This document shows positions 2,239 through 60,521 of a stretch of DNA of 64,000 nucleotides, piece by piece. Both the position numbers and the translations under genes were made by a program. Source of the stretch: Eubacteriales bacterium (lineage in GTDB: Bacteria > Bacillota > Clostridia > Oscillospirales > CAG-272); contig JAZSKY010000054.1 in the NCBI GenBank assembly GCA_045535095.1, forward strand, positions 541 to 64,540, written 5' to 3'. Position 1 is the first letter of the stretch. Each line of letters opens with the position of its first letter. Below the pieces are notes generated by a model. That model made no database searches and was not told the DNA's origin. It worked only from the letters and a program-made list of their open reading frames with translations.

Positions 2239-2245
2239 TTATTTA

Positions 2246-2604
2246 TGGACCCGGGGAGAGTCGAACTCCCGTCCGAAAACCTCTTGATATAACTTTCTAC
2301 GAGTGTAGTTTGTCTGTAATCTCCCGACAGTGTGCGGACAAACAAAACACACTGTCGGCAGCCGTCTTGTGCGTGAGAGCTGCGACGACGAGCTCACTCT
2401 TCACGTTCATCACTGCATGACGTTCAGTTTCGGGCCGTGATACTCCCGAAAGGAACGGGCTGCCTTATGGCAGCGGCACCGCTTACGCGGCCTGAGCTAC
2501 TCTATTGTTAGCGTTTAATTTTAAAAGTTGGGCAGATTTAAGAGTTTACCCCGCTCTACTCGCTTATCATACCTCAAAATCCCCGTCGAAACCTTTACGG
2601 GCCC
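2246..2604 (-). ncRNA. ssrA: tmRNA (transfer-messenger RNA)
   Basis: Minus-strand 5' end is GGGCCCGTAAAGGTTTCGACGGGGATTTTGAGG. The 3' end is GGGAGTTCGACTCTCCCCGGGTCCA. The acceptor stem GGGCCCG/CGGGTCC has the G3:U alanine identity pair. The tag reading frame (2513..2484) is GCT AAC AAT AGA GTA GCT CAG GCC GCG TAA = ANNRVAQAA*. It lies 13 nt downstream of smpB. CCA is not encoded. Confidence 0.9.
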
Positions 2605-44057: not shown

Positions 44058-44317
44058 TTGCTTTTTTCCTCCTTATTTAATGTTAAGCAGGGCGGACTTC
44101 GTTACACTCTGCCGTGTGTTTCCAAACCTTCCTTGCTTTAATCCGAATCCATACGATGCAACTCTTTCGCATAAAATTCGGAAAATCACTCAAAATAGTT
44201 TGTAAACGCGCTCAAAATGCTCCAAAGTGCCGTTTCGCCCGATTGATACGGACATACTCCGGCAGAATTACCCGCATATTTGCGGCAACCTCTGCCATCA
44301 GCGCATCAAGCTCGGAC

Positions 44318-55339: not shown

Positions 55340-56050
55340 ATGTTTTATATAGACTGGACGTACATCATTCTCGTTATGCCTGCCGTTATCTTCTCAATTT
55401 GGGCAAGCTCGCGAGTAAGCACGACCTTTGAAAAGTATTCAAAGCAGAATTCCTCGCGTAGAATGACGGGTGCCGAGGCGGCATCGCGAGTTCTTCGCGC
55501 AAACGGAATTTATGACGTCAGAATAGAGAAAATAGGCGGTAATCTCACCGACCATTACGATCCGAAGGCGAAGGTCATTCGTCTTTCAGATGCAGTTCAC
55601 GACAGCGTATCGACCGCCGCTATCGGAGTTGCCGCTCACGAGGCGGGACACGCAGTACAGCACGCGCAGAACTACGCTCCCGTCAAGATAAGAACTGCGA
55701 TAGTTCCGATAACTAACATCGGCTCAAAGCTTGCAATTCCCCTCGTTTTCATTGGAATTCTTCTTTCGTACGTTGGAGAGCAGTACGCATACATCGCTTA
55801 TGCAGGCGTTGCCGCATTCGGACTTTGCGTCCTCTTCCAGCTTGTAACTCTGCCCACAGAGTTCAACGCAAGCCGCAGAGCGCTCGTTGCTATCGAGCAG
55901 TGCGGAATACTCAGCCGAGACGAGCTTGAAGGCTCGAAAAAGGTGCTGACCGCCGCTGCGCTCACATACGTTGCCGCGCTTGCCGTAACCCTTATGCAGT
56001 TTTTAAGACTCTTTTTAATGGTCGCAGGATCGGGCAACCGCAAAAGATAA
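55340..56050 (+). CDS. membrane zinc metallopeptidase, YugP-like (Zn_peptidase_2)
   Basis: HEAGHAVQH motif, TM helices at both ends, and N-terminal FEKYSK. Confidence 0.85.
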   Translation: MFYIDWTYIILVMPAVIFSIWASSRVSTTFEKYSKQNSSRRMTGAEAASRVLRANGIYDVRIEKIGGNLTDHYDPKAKVIRLSDAVHDSVSTAAIGVAAHEAGHAVQHAQNYAPVKIRTAIVPITNIGSKLAIPLVFIGILLSYVGEQYAYIAYAGVAAFGLCVLFQLVTLPTEFNASRRALVAIEQCGILSRDELEGSKKVLTAAALTYVAALAVTLMQFLRLFLMVAGSGNRKR

Positions 56051-56102
56051 GTAAATATAAAAAACGCCGATTTGCGCAACTTCTCATAAGGAAGTTTACT
56101 CG

Positions 56103-56171
56103 TAGGCGCGATTCACGAATCGCCCGCAAGAACATTCGAAACGATAACGGGCGATTCGTGAATCGCCCCTA
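56103..56171. repeat. pair of inverted GC-rich palindromic (REP-like) hairpins
   Basis: gtaggcgcgattcacgaatcgcccg (56103-56127) and cgggcgattcgtgaatcgcccctac (56148-56172) are reverse complements with about 2 mismatches. Each is also self-complementary (gcgattc..gaatcgc). Confidence 0.7.
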
Positions 56172-56193
56172 CAAACAAATTTCGGCAGAGATG

Positions 56194-56222
56194 TTGTTTT
56201 CTCTGCCGATTTGTGTTATAAT
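56194..56222 (+). promoter_or_regulatory. orphan sigma-A-like promoter
   Basis: TTGTTT, 17-nt spacer, TATAAT (56217-56222), with TGt extended -10. No protein gene lies downstream. Confidence 0.4.
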
Positions 56223-56236
56223 GGGGCTAACGAGAA

Positions 56237-56342
56237 GCCTCGCCCTTTGGGAGAGGTGGCGGCTAAGCCGACGGAGAGGGCTCAACTGTGCGCAAAGAAC
56301 CCTCTCACCCGCTATCGCGGGAGCTCTCCCACAGGGAGAGCC
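56237..56342 (+). repeat. GC-rich multi-hairpin repeat, ORF-less copy (homologous to the reverse complement of 59782-59874)
   Basis: gcctcgccctttgggagaggtggc...ccctctcacccgctatcgcgggagctctcccacagggagagcc aligns end to end with gcctccctcttgagggaggtggc...tccctcagtcgccttcggcgacagctccctcaagagggagcc. Confidence 0.65.
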
Positions 56343-56456
56343 TTTAGACGCGTGCATCTTTAGGGGTATGGGCTTTGCCCGATGTGCCTTTGTAATACAA
56401 TGGCGAAGCTTGCGACAAAGCGAAACGATAAGAATTTGACGAACAGAATGAATTAA

Positions 56457-56499
56457 CCCCGACAGACCTTTAAGTCTGTCGGGGTTCTCTCTTTGTTTT
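56457..56499 (+). terminator. rho-independent terminator
   Basis: 11-bp stem ccccgacagac / gtctgtcgggg followed by ttctctctttgtttt. Confidence 0.6.
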
Positions 56500-56632
56500 C
56501 TGCGAAGCAAATTTTTATCTTAACGGGTCGCCGAGACCGTCGACCCCTACAAGGAGGAATCCAACTTCCTTATGAGAAGGAGCCCTTCTCGGCGTTTTTG
56601 TTTTACTTAAAGTCCTTTAAAGAAAAGAAAGC

Positions 56633-56659
56633 AAAAACAGACCTTGCGGTCTGTTTTTT
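56633..56659. terminator. bidirectional terminator (serves the DUF975 gene on the minus strand)
   Basis: aaaaacagacc-ttgc-ggtctgtttttt. Confidence 0.6.
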
Positions 56660-56665
56660 ATTTAC

Positions 56666-57279
56666 TTATTCTGCCGACTCAGCAATTTCCTCAGCGGGCT
56701 TGACCTTGTTGTAGGGATTAACCTTGTTGTAGAAGTTCGCGGAAGCGGTCTGCATATAGGGTCCTGCGTAAATAAACGCGATACCGAGGGTAATGAGACC
56801 GAGAAGAATCCAACCGATAAAGGAAAGCTGAAGAATGAAATACTCCATCTTGTGTCCCCTCATCATTTTTTCGGAGCGCGAAATAGCCTCAAGCGCGCCG
56901 ATCGACGGATCCTCTGCAACGATATACATCGCCATCGAGTAAGAATATGTCTTGATTATTCCGGGAATGATAAAGAGAAGCGACCAGAGGAATGTGAAAA
57001 GTCCCGTAAGGAAGCCTACCTTGAAAGCGATCCAGAAATCGCCGAAGCTGTTAAATACATCGCCGATCTCAGGCTTTTTGCCTGCGGTAACACCGAGATA
57101 TATTCTGACAAGGCTATCGCGAATGCAGGAGTGACGATCAGTCCGCAAAGTATGCCTAGTCCGGGAATACCGCTTGCTGCCGACGTGATGAGCGACACGA
57201 TCAGGTTAATTACAAACAAGACACCTATCTTGCCCTTTATCTGTTCTTTTGCCGCGCTTTTGAATTCTTTTCTATCCAT
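56666..57279 (-). pseudogene. DUF975 family membrane protein, interrupted by a 1-nt frameshift
   Basis: Frame A from ATG 57279 reads MDRKEFKSAAKEQIKGKIGVLFVINLIVSL...TPAFAIAL. Frame B (ORF 56666..57148) continues RIYLGVTAGKKPEIGDVFNSFGDFW... Joined together they give a normal DUF975 protein. The switch lies near 57100-57112. Confidence 0.7.
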
Positions 57280-57382
57280 AGAAAACCTCCAAAGATGTTT
57301 TTCGGGAAATATTTTTCTCCCGTAAATACATTTTAGCAAATTTTCCGATAAAAGTCAATAGTCTGCGACATTTTCCGCTTTC

Positions 57383-57736
57383 TTATTTTGCCTTGCTCTT
57401 AAATAAAAGAGCAGAGACGAGCGCGGCAACGAGAGTCACGCTGATTCCGACCGCCGAGGCAGAGAGTCCGCCGCGAAAGGCTCCGAGCAGTCCCTCACTG
57501 TCAATTGCCTTGATGACACCGCTCGCAAGCACGTTTCCAAATCCCATAAGAGGCACGGACGCGCCGCAAAGCGCAAAATCGACGAGACGCTTATATATCC
57601 CGAGCGCGCCGAGCACGGTTCCCGAAACGACGTATATAACGAGGATGCGCGCAGGAGTCATCTTCGTTTTGTCTATCAGTATCTGCGCAGGCACACAGAG
57701 TGCGCCTCCGACAAGAAAAGCCCATAAAAACTGCAT
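57383..57736 (-). CDS. spoVAE: stage V sporulation protein AE (SpoVAEb-type)
   Basis: MQFLWAFLVGGALCVPAQILID...PARILV..V..G..LG..G.Y matches the SpoVAE pattern (117 aa). Start at 57736, 1 nt after the spoVAD stop. Confidence 0.85.
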   Translation of the reverse strand: MQFLWAFLVGGALCVPAQILIDKTKMTPARILVIYVVSGTVLGALGIYKRLVDFALCGASVPLMGFGNVLASGVIKAIDSEGLLGAFRGGLSASAVGISVTLVAALVSALLFKSKAK

Positions 57737-57737
57737 T

Positions 57738-58742
57738 TTAATTACCCTTTCCTTTTGTATTTGCCGAAAAATGCACGAGATGTGCGACCGCAGGAATGCT
57801 CTCACCCTGCTGAATACTCGTCGGACTCATAAGCGCGCCCGTACCGATAAAAAGCACCTCGCGAAGGGCTCCCGCCTCGATCTCGGGCAGTATTTTCGCC
57901 GCAAGCACGAGCGCACTGCATCCGCAACCCGATCCGCCCGCGTGCATATCTTGATTTTCTCTGTCGAAAACGATAAGTCCGCAGTCGCTGTAATTCTCGC
58001 CCAGCCTTTTGCCCCTTTTTGCCATAAGATCTCTGACTATCGAATACCCCTCGTATCCGAGGTCGCCCGTAACTATAAGATCGTAGTCGGACGGAGCGCT
58101 TACGCTTTCCTCAAAATAGCGGCAGAGGGTATCAATAGCAGCAGGCGCCATCGCCGCGCCCATATTGTTTATATCCTTTATTCCGCCGTCACGCACCTTA
58201 CCGATCATTATATCGGAGACGGACGCCTTTCCTCCCTTGTCTGCGATTATAAAAGCGCCCGACGCGGTGACGGTATGCTGTGAGGTGGGCGTTCTCTGTC
58301 CGCCGTACTCGAGAGGAAAGCGGAACTGCCTCTCCGCCGAGCAAAAATGAGAGGAGGTCACAGCGCCCGTGCATTGCGCATACCCCGATGCCACCGTCAT
58401 TGATGCGAGTGCTATCGACTCCGCACAGGTCGAGCATGCTCCGTAAAGACCGACGAAGGGGACGTCGAAGCCCGAGAGTCCGTAGCTTGACGAGGTACAC
58501 TGATTCATAAGGTCGCCCGCAAAGACGGCGGACGGTCTTACTGTCGGCGAAAGCTTTGAGAGAGCACCCGAAAAGGCGAGTCTTTGCATCTCGCTTTCCG
58601 CCTTTTCCCACGTATCCTTCAAAAATCTTCCGTCGTCCGAATATTCCTCTATGAGATGACCTATCGGTCCTTCCTTTTCTTTTTTGCCCGATACGGCGTA
58701 GTAGGAGACCACCGACGGACGCTTGTCAAATTTTATATACAT
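57738..58742 (-). CDS. spoVAD: stage V sporulation protein AD
   Basis: Thiolase-like fold with the typical start ...SVVSYYAVSGKKEKEGP... and the GLYGACST and GTGALMSPT motifs. Confidence 0.9.
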   Translation of the reverse strand: MYIKFDKRPSVVSYYAVSGKKEKEGPIGHLIEEYSDDGRFLKDTWEKAESEMQRLAFSGALSKLSPTVRPSAVFAGDLMNQCTSSSYGLSGFDVPFVGLYGACSTCAESIALASMTVASGYAQCTGAVTSSHFCSAERQFRFPLEYGGQRTPTSQHTVTASGAFIIADKGGKASVSDIMIGKVRDGGIKDINNMGAAMAPAAIDTLCRYFEESVSAPSDYDLIVTGDLGYEGYSIVRDLMAKRGKRLGENYSDCGLIVFDRENQDMHAGGSGCGCSALVLAAKILPEIEAGALREVLFIGTGALMSPTSIQQGESIPAVAHLVHFSANTKGKGN

Positions 58743-58794
58743 TTTTCTTCCTCTGTTTTTGTTTTATTGTTTGCAAGAAACAGGGATTTATGCA

Positions 58795-58832
58795 AAAAGA
58801 AAACCGCCGTAAATTATGGCGGTTTTTATTTT
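58795..58832 (-). terminator. terminator after ORF 58836..59318 (hairpin usable in both directions)
   Basis: aaaccgcc-gtaaattat-ggcggttt with an A-rich tract upstream and a T-rich tract downstream. Confidence 0.55.
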
Positions 58833-58835
58833 ATG

Positions 58836-59318
58836 TTATTTTAAGTAATATTCATTTTCGCCTATTATCAGACGATTTCCCGACAAGCGCCAATCTCTTT
58901 TCCACTTGTAAACTTTTCCGTCGAAACAAAGCGTCTTATCCTCGCTAAGCGACCAAGCTTCATTGCTTTTATCTGTCATGCGCTGATTGTGCGGGTTGTA
59001 ATAATTGCATATGCGAACCGTACCTACAGACACGATTCCTGTTGAATAAAAATCCATACTCTCTATGTACTCGGTAAAATCACTTAAGGAGAACGAATTA
59101 CCCAAAGGAGCATAGTCTTCTTTTTCGGGCGGAATAGAATCTTCAGTTATATACCAAACATCAGAAGAGAGCTTTTTCACAATATAGTGTGCAGAATTGA
59201 AATACACAGTTAATGAAACTGCAAGAACAATGACTACAGCCGCCAAAGCAATATAAAACCATTTGTTGCGGAATATTTTATATTTTTTGTTCTCAACATT
59301 ATTCGTTACATCAATCAT
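58836..59318 (-). CDS. hypothetical membrane-anchored protein (orphan, AT-rich)
   Basis: The ATG at 59318 (MIDVTNNVENKKYKIFRNKWFYIALAAVVIVLAVSLTVYF...) has GAAAGGAAAA upstream. One N-terminal TM helix. No family recognised. The longer track start runs into the repeat. Confidence 0.5.
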   Translation of the reverse strand: MIDVTNNVENKKYKIFRNKWFYIALAAVVIVLAVSLTVYFNSAHYIVKKLSSDVWYITEDSIPPEKEDYAPLGNSFSLSDFTEYIESMDFYSTGIVSVGTVRICNYYNPHNQRMTDKSNEAWSLSEDKTLCFDGKVYKWKRDWRLSGNRLIIGENEYYLK

Positions 59319-59348
59319 TTTCGTTTTCCTTTCGTTGTGTTTCAATAA

Positions 59349-59394
59349 CTCCTTCCGTCTCGCCCCGCGAGCCACCTCCCTCTAGAGGGAGGCC
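59349..59394 (-). repeat. half copy (first half, read on the minus strand) of the GC-rich multi-hairpin repeat
   Basis: Minus strand reads ggcctccctctagagggaggtggctcgcggggcgagacggaaggag, against gcctccctcttgagggaggtggcacaacggagtcgtgacggaaggag in the full copy. Confidence 0.65.
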
Positions 59395-59738
59395 TTTACA
59401 ACGGCATCTATATATTTGCATACTCCTATAAAATTATCGTTTATTTGTCTGTTCGTAAAACGTATTACTTTTAATCCGTACTCTTTCAAAACCTCTGTAC
59501 GAAATTCGTCTTTATTTTTTCCTTCCGCCGTGTAGTGCTGTGATCCGTCTATTTCTATAATCAGTCTTGCTCTATAACAGTAAAAATCAGCTATAAAGTT
59601 ATCTATTGCCTTTTGACGTTGAAACCTAATTTCATATTTTGATAAAAAATCGTACCACAAGTGATTTTCTTCCGGCGTAGCGTTTTTGCGTAAATTTTTC
59701 GCAAGTGATATGTTTTTGCCGTTATATTTGAGTGGCAT
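59382..59738 (-). CDS. DUF559 domain protein (Vsr-like PD-(D/E)XK endonuclease fold)
   Basis: 118 aa. LRKNATPEENHLWYDFL...RFQRQKAI.NFIADFYC...LIIEIDGSQH...D..R...L...G..V.RF.N is the DUF559 signature. AT-rich. The stop codon lies inside the repeat hairpin. Confidence 0.85.
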   Translation of the reverse strand: MPLKYNGKNISLAKNLRKNATPEENHLWYDFLSKYEIRFQRQKAIDNFIADFYCYRARLIIEIDGSQHYTAEGKNKDEFRTEVLKEYGLKVIRFTNRQINDNFIGVCKYIDAVVKASL

Positions 59739-59781
59739 CGCTTCTCCTTATCTCTATTTTGTAAATTTCATTTTGCAAGCA

Positions 59782-59874
59782 GGCTCCCTCTTGAGGGAGC
59801 TGTCGCCGAAGGCGACTGAGGGAGTGACTCCTTCCGTCACGACTCCGTTGTGCCACCTCCCTCAAGAGGGAGGC
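59782..59874 (-). repeat. full copy of the GC-rich multi-hairpin repeat
   Basis: 93 nt of consecutive hairpins: cctccctc/gagggagg, gtgac/gtcac, gtcgc/gcgac with a cttcg loop, and gctccctc/gagggagc. It starts 5 nt after the stop of the histidine phosphatase gene. Confidence 0.65.
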
Positions 59875-59879
59875 TTTAA

Positions 59880-60521
59880 TCACACCTTCGCGGGAAATCT
59901 CGTTACAAGATCGCCGAGATGCTCGTCGTATCCGGCCATTATCTCGGTGAATTTTCCGTCCGCATATTCAAACTCGGACACCGATGCGTTAGTTACCCAT
60001 CTGATATTTTTCATCTCAGAAAGAGGCTTTTCTGCGCAGTGGCAACGAAGGGCGCGGATCGGGGTTGCGTGAGTTGCGATGGCAACCGTTTTTCCATCGT
60101 TTTCCGCGGCTATTTTTTCAAGCGCGGACACAAATCGTCTCTGGAGCGAGGCTACCGACTCTCCGCCGTCACAAACCGCCTCTCCGATATTGCAGAGCCA
60201 GACGTTTTTGTACTCGTCGAAGGTCTCGTAAAGCTCTTCGAAGCGGCGTCCCTCCCAGAGTCCTGCACTTATCTCGCGCAGATCTTTGTCGCATATCGGA
60301 TCAAGTCCGATTATATCTCCTATCGCAAGTCCTACGGCAAGCGCTCTTTTCAGGTCGCTTGAATAAACCTTATCTATTTTATAATTTTCGCACAGATACT
60401 CGGCAGTCTTTTTTGCCTGCAAAAGTCCCAGCTCCGAGGGTGGCGAGTCAAAATGACCTGCAAAGACCTCCTCGACGTTTGCCATACTCTGTCCGTGTCT
60501 TATTATAAGAAATCTCGTCAT
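59880..60521 (-). CDS. histidine phosphatase family protein (PGAM/CobC-like)
   Basis: LIIRHGQSMANV (RHG motif) and a later H in ATHATP. Start at 60521. Confidence 0.85.
   Translation of the reverse strand: MTRFLIIRHGQSMANVEEVFAGHFDSPPSELGLLQAKKTAEYLCENYKIDKVYSSDLKRALAVGLAIGDIIGLDPICDKDLREISAGLWEGRRFEELYETFDEYKNVWLCNIGEAVCDGGESVASLQRRFVSALEKIAAENDGKTVAIATHATPIRALRCHCAEKPLSEMKNIRWVTNASVSEFEYADGKFTEIMAGYDEHLGDLVTRFPAKV

Follow-up and report, generated by a model that had tools for sequence, protein, structure and literature searches.

DUF559 is, to our knowledge, a very large family of small nucleases without an assigned function. In a 64-kb stretch of DNA from a Eubacteriales bacterium (contig JAZSKY010000054.1), which was analysed at its full length and is referred to as the window, an open reading frame (ORF) of 118 amino acids (aa) belonging to this family is flanked by copies of a palindromic repeat, the unit, that is composed of five hairpins. 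Across gut Clostridia, the DUF559 family is almost always built into or onto this family of units, and we tentatively propose that DUF559 may be a homing-type selfish nuclease gene spreading by recombination into copies of its cognate dispersed palindromic repeat. This reading is suggested by the kinds of sequences that flank the gene, by empty sites in relatives, by an insert younger than its surroundings, by a conversion-like identical tract, by the intactness of the nuclease and by repeat subtypes that are specific for the clades of the gene. All comparative data were derived from metagenome-assembled genomes (MAGs) and metagenome contigs, and the loci were chosen by similarity, which biases the association counts.

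The DUF559 locus of the window and its counterparts in relatives

Read on the minus strand, the segment 59344-59882 comprises the stop codon of a histidine-phosphatase gene (59880-59882), 5 nt of spacer, a full unit, a leader of 41 nt, the DUF559 ORF and a half unit. The following features were assigned in this region:

58836-59318, minus strand: resident, fast-evolving, AT-rich membrane-protein gene outside the element, with its N-terminal Zn-ribbon part gone (syntenic homologues)
59344-59395, minus strand: truncated unit U2, consisting of H1, H2 and the 5' arm of H3 only (covariance model, 19.5 bits, E=1.5e-4)
59382-59738, minus strand: DUF559 ORF of 118 aa, a Vsr-like PD-(D/E)xK nuclease of clade A (Pfam PF04480, E=7e-28)
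59739-59779, minus strand: AT-rich leader with the Shine-Dalgarno sequence AAGGAG 5 nt before the ATG (read from the sequence)
59780-59876, minus strand: full five-hairpin unit U1 of 97 nt, A-type subtype (covariance model R1, 77.5 bits, E=1e-22)

The Pfam match covers the whole domain (residues 11-113) and scored 97 bits against a cutoff of 20.6; further matches were obtained with NCBIfam PRK09767 (E=6e-15, under the equivalog cutoff) and PDB entry 3HRL (E=7e-10). Unit U1 is formed by hairpin H1 (GCCTCCCTC..GAGGGAGG), followed by H2, a short H3, H4 and H5; it was also detected as repeat families D1 and I2 in a repeat search, and both of its strands folded far more stably than shuffled sequence (z = -5.4 and -5.7). 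Since a promoter scan detected no sigma-70-like promoter on the minus strand within the leader 59739-59779, the DUF559 gene of the window is probably co-transcribed with the histidine-phosphatase gene through U1.

A preliminary description of this DNA had placed the ORF between a full and a half copy of the hairpin unit, with direct shared blocks on both sides, a stop codon inside a repeat hairpin, an interior of low G+C content and no transposase or integrase, and all of these observations were reproduced. The covariance model matched 59780-59876 and 59344-59395, and U2 and U1 have blocks of 15 nt (59348-59362 and 59827-59841, 93% identity) and 26 nt (59371-59396 and 59852-59877, 92% identity) in common. 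The stop codon TAG is situated in the H1 loop of the downstream unit (CCTCCCTC-TAG-AGGGAGG). The G+C content amounts to 28.3% at 59401-59460, 34.5% in the DUF559 ORF and 63% in the unit, as against 50% in the histidine-phosphatase gene and 53.5% in the SpoVAD gene. Additionally, a 23-nt hairpin pattern matched three times in the window and not at all in 100 shuffled sequences. No transposase or integrase gene was found in the unit-DUF559-unit block, and searches with PHROGs and PADLOC and against phage and plasmid sequences yielded weak or distant matches only (PADLOC DpdF, 5e-7, and mREase_II, 1e-6). Exact-sequence look-ups of the DUF559, SpoVAD and histidine-phosphatase sequences of the window returned no record, and near relatives were used instead.

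Contigs of relatives were traced via the histidine phosphatase (76-80% amino-acid identity). The interval between the histidine-phosphatase and SpoVAD genes is empty in three related lineages and filled in the window and in a fourth lineage, L081, which was reached through a 98%-identical DUF559 protein. In L090, SpoVAD lies 94 nt past the histidine-phosphatase gene and the spacer consists of one terminator; in L084-L089 and L091, a helix-turn-helix (HTH) gene and a Zn-ribbon/membrane gene are located between the two genes. Neither arrangement contains DUF559 or a unit. With such empty sites in relatives, which the preliminary description had suggested looking for, the unit-DUF559-unit block of the window is evidently an insertion. 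The order in L081 is histidine-phosphatase gene, full unit, the same leader, DUF559, full U2, terminator, HTH gene, Zn-ribbon gene and SpoVAD. The nucleotide identity between the window and L081 is 91% for U1 and 95% each for the leader and DUF559, as against 76% for the histidine-phosphatase gene and 78% for SpoVAD, from which it appears that the block arrived, or was exchanged, long after the split of the two lineages. Likewise, the third codon positions differ by 12% in the insert and by 44% in the flanking genes. The differences between the two DUF559 genes are distributed as 3/0/14 over the codon positions, and the gene is evidently under purifying selection.

In the window copy, the unit-leader-DUF559-unit block would have landed past the stop codon of the histidine-phosphatase gene, and a later deletion would have taken away the distal half of U2 and the beginning of the next gene, together with the terminator and the HTH gene in between. 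With a full U2 at the same place in L081, the half unit of the window is best seen as the edge, or scar, of this deletion, and the expectation that DUF559 is always accompanied by a full plus a half unit was not upheld, since L081 possesses two full units. The adjoining ORF 58836-59318 had been described as equally AT-rich cargo; it is indeed AT-rich (36.6% G+C) but was ruled out as cargo, as a syntenic, equally AT-rich homologue is present in relatives without DUF559. It is 29-32% identical at the amino-acid level to a syntenic gene of 199-204 aa upstream of SpoVAD in L081, L084, L085 and L087, and the G+C content of the syntenic homologues is 0.35, including those of genomes without DUF559. 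As a side observation, both the His_Phos-SpoVAD interval (window 58743-59879) and the SpoVAEB-Zn_peptidase interval (56051-57382) are hot spots of variable content in comparison with L081, L084, L090 and L091, and they contain HTH and Zn-ribbon genes, an adh_short gene, a membrane protein or nothing, depending on the lineage.

Further signs of movement were obtained from the relatives. Among the DUF559 ORFs, 25 pairs are at least 97% identical, mostly between different species-representative genomes. Two loci of the same MAG (L023 and L024, SIG675) are 100% identical from -59 to +429 around the ATG of DUF559, i.e. over about 490 bp. Beyond this tract, the identity falls to 90, 86 and 72% and then to noise, and the flanks, ends and cargo differ; the tract thus resembles the footprint of a conversion event.

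The five-hairpin unit and the clades of DUF559

The members of the unit family start with AAGCC, have a size of about 100-135 bp and consist of five hairpins, H1 to H5. The two halves of the unit are inverted repeats of each other, the 5' half comprising H1, H2 and the 5' arm of H3, and the model accordingly matches both strands. The unit is a dyad-symmetric doublet similar to the REPINs (doublets of repetitive extragenic palindromes, REPs), and the half copy of the window is a singlet. The covariance model was built from a hand-drawn five-hairpin structure and pair counts; an RNAalifold consensus derived from a MAFFT alignment was set aside as muddled, because H1 and H5 can also pair together. 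In the 64-kb window the model detected exactly three copies (59780-59876, 59344-59395 and 56235-56344), all tied to two elements, and this rules out the unit as a highly dispersed repeat within the window.

The stems of the unit show covariation. In these stems 93.7% of the cells are paired, as compared with 45-60% in slid controls, and 14 double-change pairs were counted in comparison with 6.1 +/- 1.3 in shuffles (0 of 500). Hairpins H2 and H4 exist in many fully compensated versions; no correlation was seen by eye between these variable stems and the stems of host terminators, which were considered as a possible guide. The paired columns contain 35 G.T and 34 A.C combinations, and the constraint therefore acts on a DNA palindrome and not on a single RNA strand. 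As G.U is not in excess over A.C, selection on the unit at the RNA level was ruled out. In the comparison with Rfam 15, which the preliminary description had proposed, the unit, the half unit and the leader of the cassettes described below matched no known RNA family at the gathering score, and no match with E<=5 was obtained over 55900-60000.

The unit had also been expected to occur beyond the DUF559 locus, and this was found to be the case, both for the third window copy (56235-56344) and for solo units in the flanks of relatives. About 0.9 Mb of flanks contained roughly 20 solo units, which represent several subtypes and reside in ordinary intergenic DNA in either orientation, also between convergent genes; their surroundings revealed neither a target-site duplication nor any other sign of integration. 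The H2, H3 and H4 loops of units often hold further insertions. Many subtypes of the unit (C and D types) were encountered only in the absence of DUF559. A GTAG or CGTC tag next to a single palindrome is not a property of the units, which have five hairpins and an AAGCC start. Separately, a unit that collapsed through fusion of H1 and H5 was observed in L020.

Four clades of DUF559, 41-48% identical to one another, were distinguished, each of them with its own unit subtype, and the gene is positioned at the edge of a unit, between units or inside the central loop. The residues D51, E62, D64, G65, Q67 and H68 (D..ExDG.QH) are invariant in all 23 sequences compared, which represent two clades with 38-44% identity. 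With 3009 clusters, clade B equals clade A in size, and it includes the second DUF559 gene of L028 (41% identical), the ORF of which lies within the central H3 loop of a unit in the order H1, H2, 5' arm of H3 (GGATGAGGAG), 5 nt, ORF, 2 nt, 3' arm of H3, H4 and H5. The 5' arm GGATGAGGAG doubles as the ribosome-binding (Shine-Dalgarno) site, and the clade-B ORF accounts for 375 nt between two inverted unit halves. This in-loop design was found in five genomic contexts, one of them with a solo unit of the same subtype, having a loop of 18 nt, at a distance of 250 nt. The earlier picture of a nuclease with structured ends is thus realised literally in clade B, where the ORF is inside the unit. Moreover, two human-gut contigs encode DUF559 proteins that are 42-48% identical; one of them carries a unit 20 nt upstream of the gene and the other (L237) inverted unit halves on both sides.

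In every geometry, the close neighbours of DUF559 on either side are sequences that also occur elsewhere in the absence of the gene. The flanking pairs are two units (window, L081 and L237), two halves of a single unit in clade B or, in most of clade A, a cassette leader and a unit.

Cassettes in terminator loops and the occupants of their slot

The DUF559 protein of the window has 3262 cluster-level relatives, the best 120 of which are 78-98% identical and mostly located on very short contigs, as is typical of assembly-breaking repeats. The clade-A set comprised 80 loci from species-representative genomes, all of them ruminant or human gut Clostridia. A full unit begins 8 nt before the end of the protein match in 63 of the 80 loci, and 61 loci share a conserved upstream module that consists of a left-end hairpin, a promoter hairpin with a -35 box and an extended -10 box (TGnTATAAT), and the ribosome-binding site GGAGGAG. 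Of the 19 loci that lack the cassette promoter, 14 retain the unit or its H1 hairpin at the 3' end, and in 4 others a unit is located immediately upstream. The clade-A unit is followed on its 3' side by a structured leader that is conserved, then by an AT-rich variable gene, a terminator (CCCCGACAGA..TCTGTCGGGG) and, in inverted orientation, a further copy of the left end, giving a cassette with the layout portable promoter, slot, leader, variable gene and terminator. The variable genes have a G+C content of 0.28-0.41, that of their loci being 0.40-0.56; NUDIX, GNAT, nucleotidyltransferase and radical SAM genes are among them, and many others belong to no known family. Beyond the cassette ends, an A-run and a stem X are present on one side and the reverse complement of X and a T-run on the other, with X being unique for each locus; the cassette of ~1.5 kb therefore sits in the loop of a host terminator. 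The units and cassettes showed no direct target-site duplication, the cassettes having inverted ends, and no DDE transposase with matching ends was detected in about 1.3 Mb of related loci. A parent of the IS1182 type, considered for these hairpin-targeting cassettes on the model of IS1272, was rejected, as no such transposase was seen and a gene resembling those of the REP-associated tyrosine transposases (RAYTs) occurs in the frame.

The slot was surveyed by a metagenome scan with the promoter hairpin as the sole anchor, which gave 84 informative cases. The promoter is followed by a unit without DUF559 in 29 of the 84 cassettes and by a GTAGG-type REP, or nothing, before the leader in 25; at least 14 contain a RAYT-like Y1 transposase gene (172-185 aa; NCBIfam REP_Tyr_transpos, E=3e-17; PDB 4ER8, E=6e-5) with the same left end, leader and cargo. 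DUF559 occupies the slot in 3 of the 84, a rough figure since the anchor is limited and uneven and matches only 14 of the 80 DUF559 loci. One and the same cargo gene can follow DUF559, a REP or a RAYT-like gene, and the junctions are precise (empty, AACGAAAAGCC; filled left, AACGATAAAAC; filled right, GCCGTAAAAGCC). The 64-kb window contains no RAYT-like gene. With regard to the association between DUF559 and the unit, the preliminary description is borne out by the four clades that are built into or onto units, but the unit is not only a bracket of DUF559, as is evident from the 29 unit-only versus 3 DUF559 cassettes.

A gene-less cassette is present at 56 kb in the window, with the following features:

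56071-56588, plus strand: cassette frame of 518 bp without DUF559 or cargo, in the terminator loop of Zn_peptidase_2 (intact terminators in relatives)
56182-56226, plus strand: portable hairpin and promoter, TCGGCAGAGA..TCTCTGCCGA then TTTGTGTTATAATGG, -35 TTGTTT, extended -10 (match of the hidden Markov model (HMM) 'five')
56235-56344, plus strand: C-type unit GCCTCGCCC..GGGAGAGG, H3 GGAGAGGG/CCCTCTC, in the slot, without DUF559 (covariance model)
56344-56486, plus strand: leader 'tail' GGGGTATGGGCTTTGCCC..GCCTTTGTAATACAATGGCGAA.., then terminator CCCCGACAGAC..GTCTGTCGGGG, without cargo gene (HMM and terminator scan)

The split arms of the terminator, AAAAAACGCCGA (56059-56070) and TCGGCGTTTTT (56589-56599), are 518 bp apart, and the orthologous Zn-peptidase terminators are intact in L090, L091 and L084 (AAAAACGCCGAC-GCTG-TCGGCGTTTTT). 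The frame carries perfect 17-bp terminal inverted repeats (CTTCTCATAAGGAAGTT) at 56080-56096 and 56563-56579. The hairpin at 56182-56226 is terminator-like, and elsewhere the same module precedes DUF559, units, REPs or RAYT-like genes. The unit scored 69.0 and 68.6 bits on the plus and minus strands, respectively, reflecting its dyad symmetry. The 'tail' match extends over 56344-56434 (73 bits) and the terminator over 56455-56486. GTAGG-tagged, REP-like palindromes were additionally observed nested in this cassette, as a doublet (GGCGATTCACGAATCGCC) at 56101-56172 and a singlet (GGGTCGCCGAGACCGTCGACCCC) at 56521-56550, and one REP of this type splits the left-end sequence between GTTTAC and AAA. 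The GTAGG-type REPs of the window constitute a family separate from the units.

Several other observations were made on the cassettes and their genes. RAYT-like genes in the slot were found on the metagenome contigs L096, L116, L125, L130, L148, L176, L201 and L206. Each of these ORFs carries half a GTAGG-type REP in frame (VGRGLAPAE, VGTGVLDGPQ, VGANCVRPQ), the REP type varying between copies, and it looks as if each RAYT-like gene holds a copy of its own REP. The leader motif, which is present in more than 60 loci (e.g. L008, 10479-10565) and consists of GGGGTATGGGCTTTGCCC, the hairpin GCCTTTGTAATACAAAGGC with compensated variants GCATTTG/CAAATGC, and then GAAACTGGCGATAAA, precedes unrelated cargo and begins right at the stop codon of RAYT-like genes; it may represent a novel cis-regulatory RNA or else a site of recombination. 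A further abundant repeat of tandem short hairpins with GTGATATTC / GAATATCAC lies beside or inside cassettes (L026, about 1700-1950; L034, 9800-9930; downstream flanks of L058 and L075). Downstream of clade-B elements, a conserved terminator (GTTCCCACAAACCG..GGTCTGTGGGAAC) was noted in L212, L232 and L234. Because it is followed by a copy of the cassette right end (ATTTCTCCGATAAGAA.ATCAC) in L212 and L234, clade-B elements may also be nested in cassettes. Many clade-A proteins end with ..KASLREGGG, which is the translated H1 hairpin, and database DUF559 proteins (P0008, P0024, P0046, P0010, P0015 and others) carry spurious C-terminal extensions (..ASLREGGGPR, ..SRLRRQLPPGG) that are annotation artefacts resulting from the overlap with repeat hairpins. 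Elsewhere in the window, a tmRNA gene (2243-2604, minus strand, 152.7 bits) and an S10-Clostridia ribosomal-protein leader (44235-44309, minus strand, 36.2 bits) were identified as ordinary housekeeping RNAs that fit a Clostridia chromosome.

Possible explanations and relation to known systems

If DUF559 is a homing-type gene, the nuclease would recognise its cognate unit, probably as palindromic or cruciform DNA, and would nick or cut unit copies without the gene. Recombinational repair from a gene-bearing copy would then bring in the ORF, with the repeat sequences serving as homology arms, and the gene could spread within and between genomes without a transposase, because its target is a dispersed and horizontally mobile repeat. 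The preliminary description had offered a selfish cassette or a nuclease homing into a dispersed structured repeat; the mobile insertion and the dispersed unit stand, but the full-plus-half design and the AT-rich cargo do not. Several points weigh against the homing proposal. Cleavage of the unit by DUF559 is purely inferred. In L031, DUF559-free units and DUF559 coexist on the same contig with identical H1 hairpins, so the unit alone is not an efficiently converted target. The pairing of clades and unit subtypes could reflect common descent of each gene-repeat block, and the identical tract of L023 and L024 could arise by gene conversion among repeated cassettes without any nuclease. The left junctions of the window (TTAAA) and L081 (a 48-nt spacer) are unlike, and insertion at an identical nucleotide is thus not demonstrable for the two. 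In the slot, DUF559 is clearly in the minority, at the rough figure of about 3 in 84, and the fragmented nature of the MAG and metagenome contigs precludes copy numbers per genome.

It is conceivable, though in our view doubtful, that DUF559 is a passenger and that units and cassettes are moved in trans by other enzymes, most plausibly RAYT-like Y1 (HUH) transposases, the nuclease being cargo with a cellular role in defence or repair nicking whose adjacency to units was inherited from an old juxtaposition. RAYT-like genes in exactly the DUF559 slot with the same left-end hairpin, promoter, leader and cargo, the same cargo gene behind DUF559, REP and RAYT-like gene, the many unrelated small genes in cassettes (NUDIX, GNAT, nucleotidyltransferase, radical SAM), the minority status of DUF559 in the slot and the weak PADLOC matches to defence nucleases (DpdF, 5e-7; mREase_II, 1e-6) are consistent with such a role. 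However, one old juxtaposition explains poorly why four clades in three geometries have their own unit subtypes, and the copies of the window and L081 are located outside any cassette, yet have units on both sides. The units also lack the GTAG tag of the REPs that are paired with these RAYT-like genes (PMC3733652), and the window contains no RAYT-like gene. That DUF559 is itself the mobilising enzyme of the units appears improbable. The system would then be REPtron-like, with a PD-(D/E)xK nuclease replacing the HUH transposase, and solo units would be non-autonomous derivatives similar to miniature inverted-repeat transposable elements (MITEs), spread by the nuclease acting on hairpin or cruciform DNA. 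Clade B does resemble an autonomous element beside its deletion derivative, the unit subtypes are clade-specific in the way that REPs are cognate to RAYTs (PMC2817692), hairpin loops (H2, H3, H4 and terminator loops) repeatedly contain insertions, and the structural constraint acts at the DNA level. On the other hand, DNA joining is not known for any Vsr-like nuclease, and nicking by itself is insufficient for the integration of an element. For many unit subtypes (C and D types), all copies seen were devoid of DUF559, and the surroundings of solo units showed neither a target-site duplication nor another integration signature.

A role of the unit as RNA, i.e. as intercistronic stabiliser, attenuator or structure of untranslated regions, with the DUF559 association reflecting expression needs and not mobility, is regarded as highly unlikely. 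The unit is certainly transcribed in many contexts, since cargo genes carry it in their 5' leaders and DUF559 at its 3' end, its folds are very stable, and the 5' arm of the clade-B H3 doubles as a Shine-Dalgarno sequence; but the equal counts of G.T (35) and A.C (34) in paired columns give no sense-strand RNA signature, the 56-kb copy scores equally on both strands, Rfam provided no match, units occur in either orientation and between convergent genes, and the empty sites and the young insert would be left unexplained. Finally, DUF559 and its units might constitute a new class of mobile element, although we consider this rather unlikely. A minimal nuclease of 118-124 aa would propagate itself and its repeat without transposase, recombinase or reverse transcriptase, through cutting of hairpin or cruciform DNA and host repair. 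Such a class would be a PD-(D/E)xK counterpart of the RAYT/REPIN system, very abundant in gut Clostridia, with the cassettes as a second, undescribed layer.

Thousands of DUF559 members of gut Clostridia are now tied to a specific DNA partner, and the homing proposal offers a testable hypothesis, namely the cleavage of the cognate unit and the conversion of empty units. If it is true, a homing-type nuclease escapes the limit of one site by targeting a dispersed repeat, and a second enzyme superfamily joins the biology of REP-like repeats. The analysis also exposed a family of cassettes by which promoters and accessory genes are brought into terminator loops; this would alter how neighbouring genes are transcribed and would carry small genes back and forth between species of the rumen and the gut. 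In practical terms, metagenome assemblies are interrupted at these elements, which also give rise to spurious ORFs and C-terminal extensions in annotations.

The statement that the DUF559 locus fits no class of mobile elements was too strong, as most relatives reside in inverted-repeat cassettes that share their frame with RAYT-like Y1 genes. In the portions of the DUF559 literature that were consulted, no link to such palindromic repeats appeared, nor anything relevant that joins Vsr, REP and endonuclease. REPtrons consist of RAYT genes flanked by cognate REP or REPIN repeats (PMC2817692, PMC3116915, PMC3337134), and REP doublets within larger palindromes are on record (PMC3733652). The DUF559 loci resemble them in having a small nuclease-type gene flanked by inverted copies of a palindromic repeat, in the dispersal of this repeat as singlets and inverted doublets and in the specific repeat subtype of each gene clade. 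In contrast, the enzyme belongs to the Vsr-like PD-(D/E)xK nucleases instead of the HUH Y1 enzymes, the unit is built of five hairpins and lacks a GTAG or CGTC tag, and genuine RAYT-like genes with GTAGG-type REPs are present in the same cassettes as a system of their own. The majority of RAYTs associated with REPINs occur as single, vertically inherited copies (PMC5581495), whereas DUF559 is multi-copy and horizontally mobile. Vsr-like nucleases are known as homing endonucleases, e.g. I-Bth0305I (PMC3239194, PMC2677866). The fold superfamily, the presence or absence at a conserved site, an insert younger than its flanks, the conversion-like identical tract with decaying flanks and the lack of a transposase are common to both, but the presumed target is a dispersed palindromic repeat instead of a unique conserved gene, no intron or intein is involved, and the protein is a minimal DUF559 domain of 118-124 aa.

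With respect to MITEs and their parent insertion sequences (ISs), the gene-bearing and gene-less forms of clade B with the same inverted ends are comparable, and the 1.5-kb cassettes, with terminal inverted repeats and passenger genes, resemble mobile insertion cassettes; the differences are that no DDE transposase with matching ends was found, that no target-site duplication was seen and that the sole conserved gene is a small nuclease. IS1272 and TnSha1 of the IS1182 family insert into terminator hairpins, IS1272 thereby deleting part of the stem (PMC4923244, PMC5678879). The cassettes, including that at 56071-56588, likewise lie within unrelated intrinsic-terminator hairpins without target duplication, but they are located in the apical loop with both stem arms kept, and the sole transposase-like gene in the frame is RAYT-like, no IS1182-type transposase having been found. 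Integron cassettes share the attachment of small, AT-rich, miscellaneous genes (NUDIX, GNAT, nucleotidyltransferase) to a structured palindromic repeat. In the flanks examined, neither arrays nor an integrase nor an attI/attC consensus were noticed, in inspection without a formal attC/IntI search, and in contrast to integrons the cassettes occur singly, one per site in a terminator loop, each with its own promoter and terminator.

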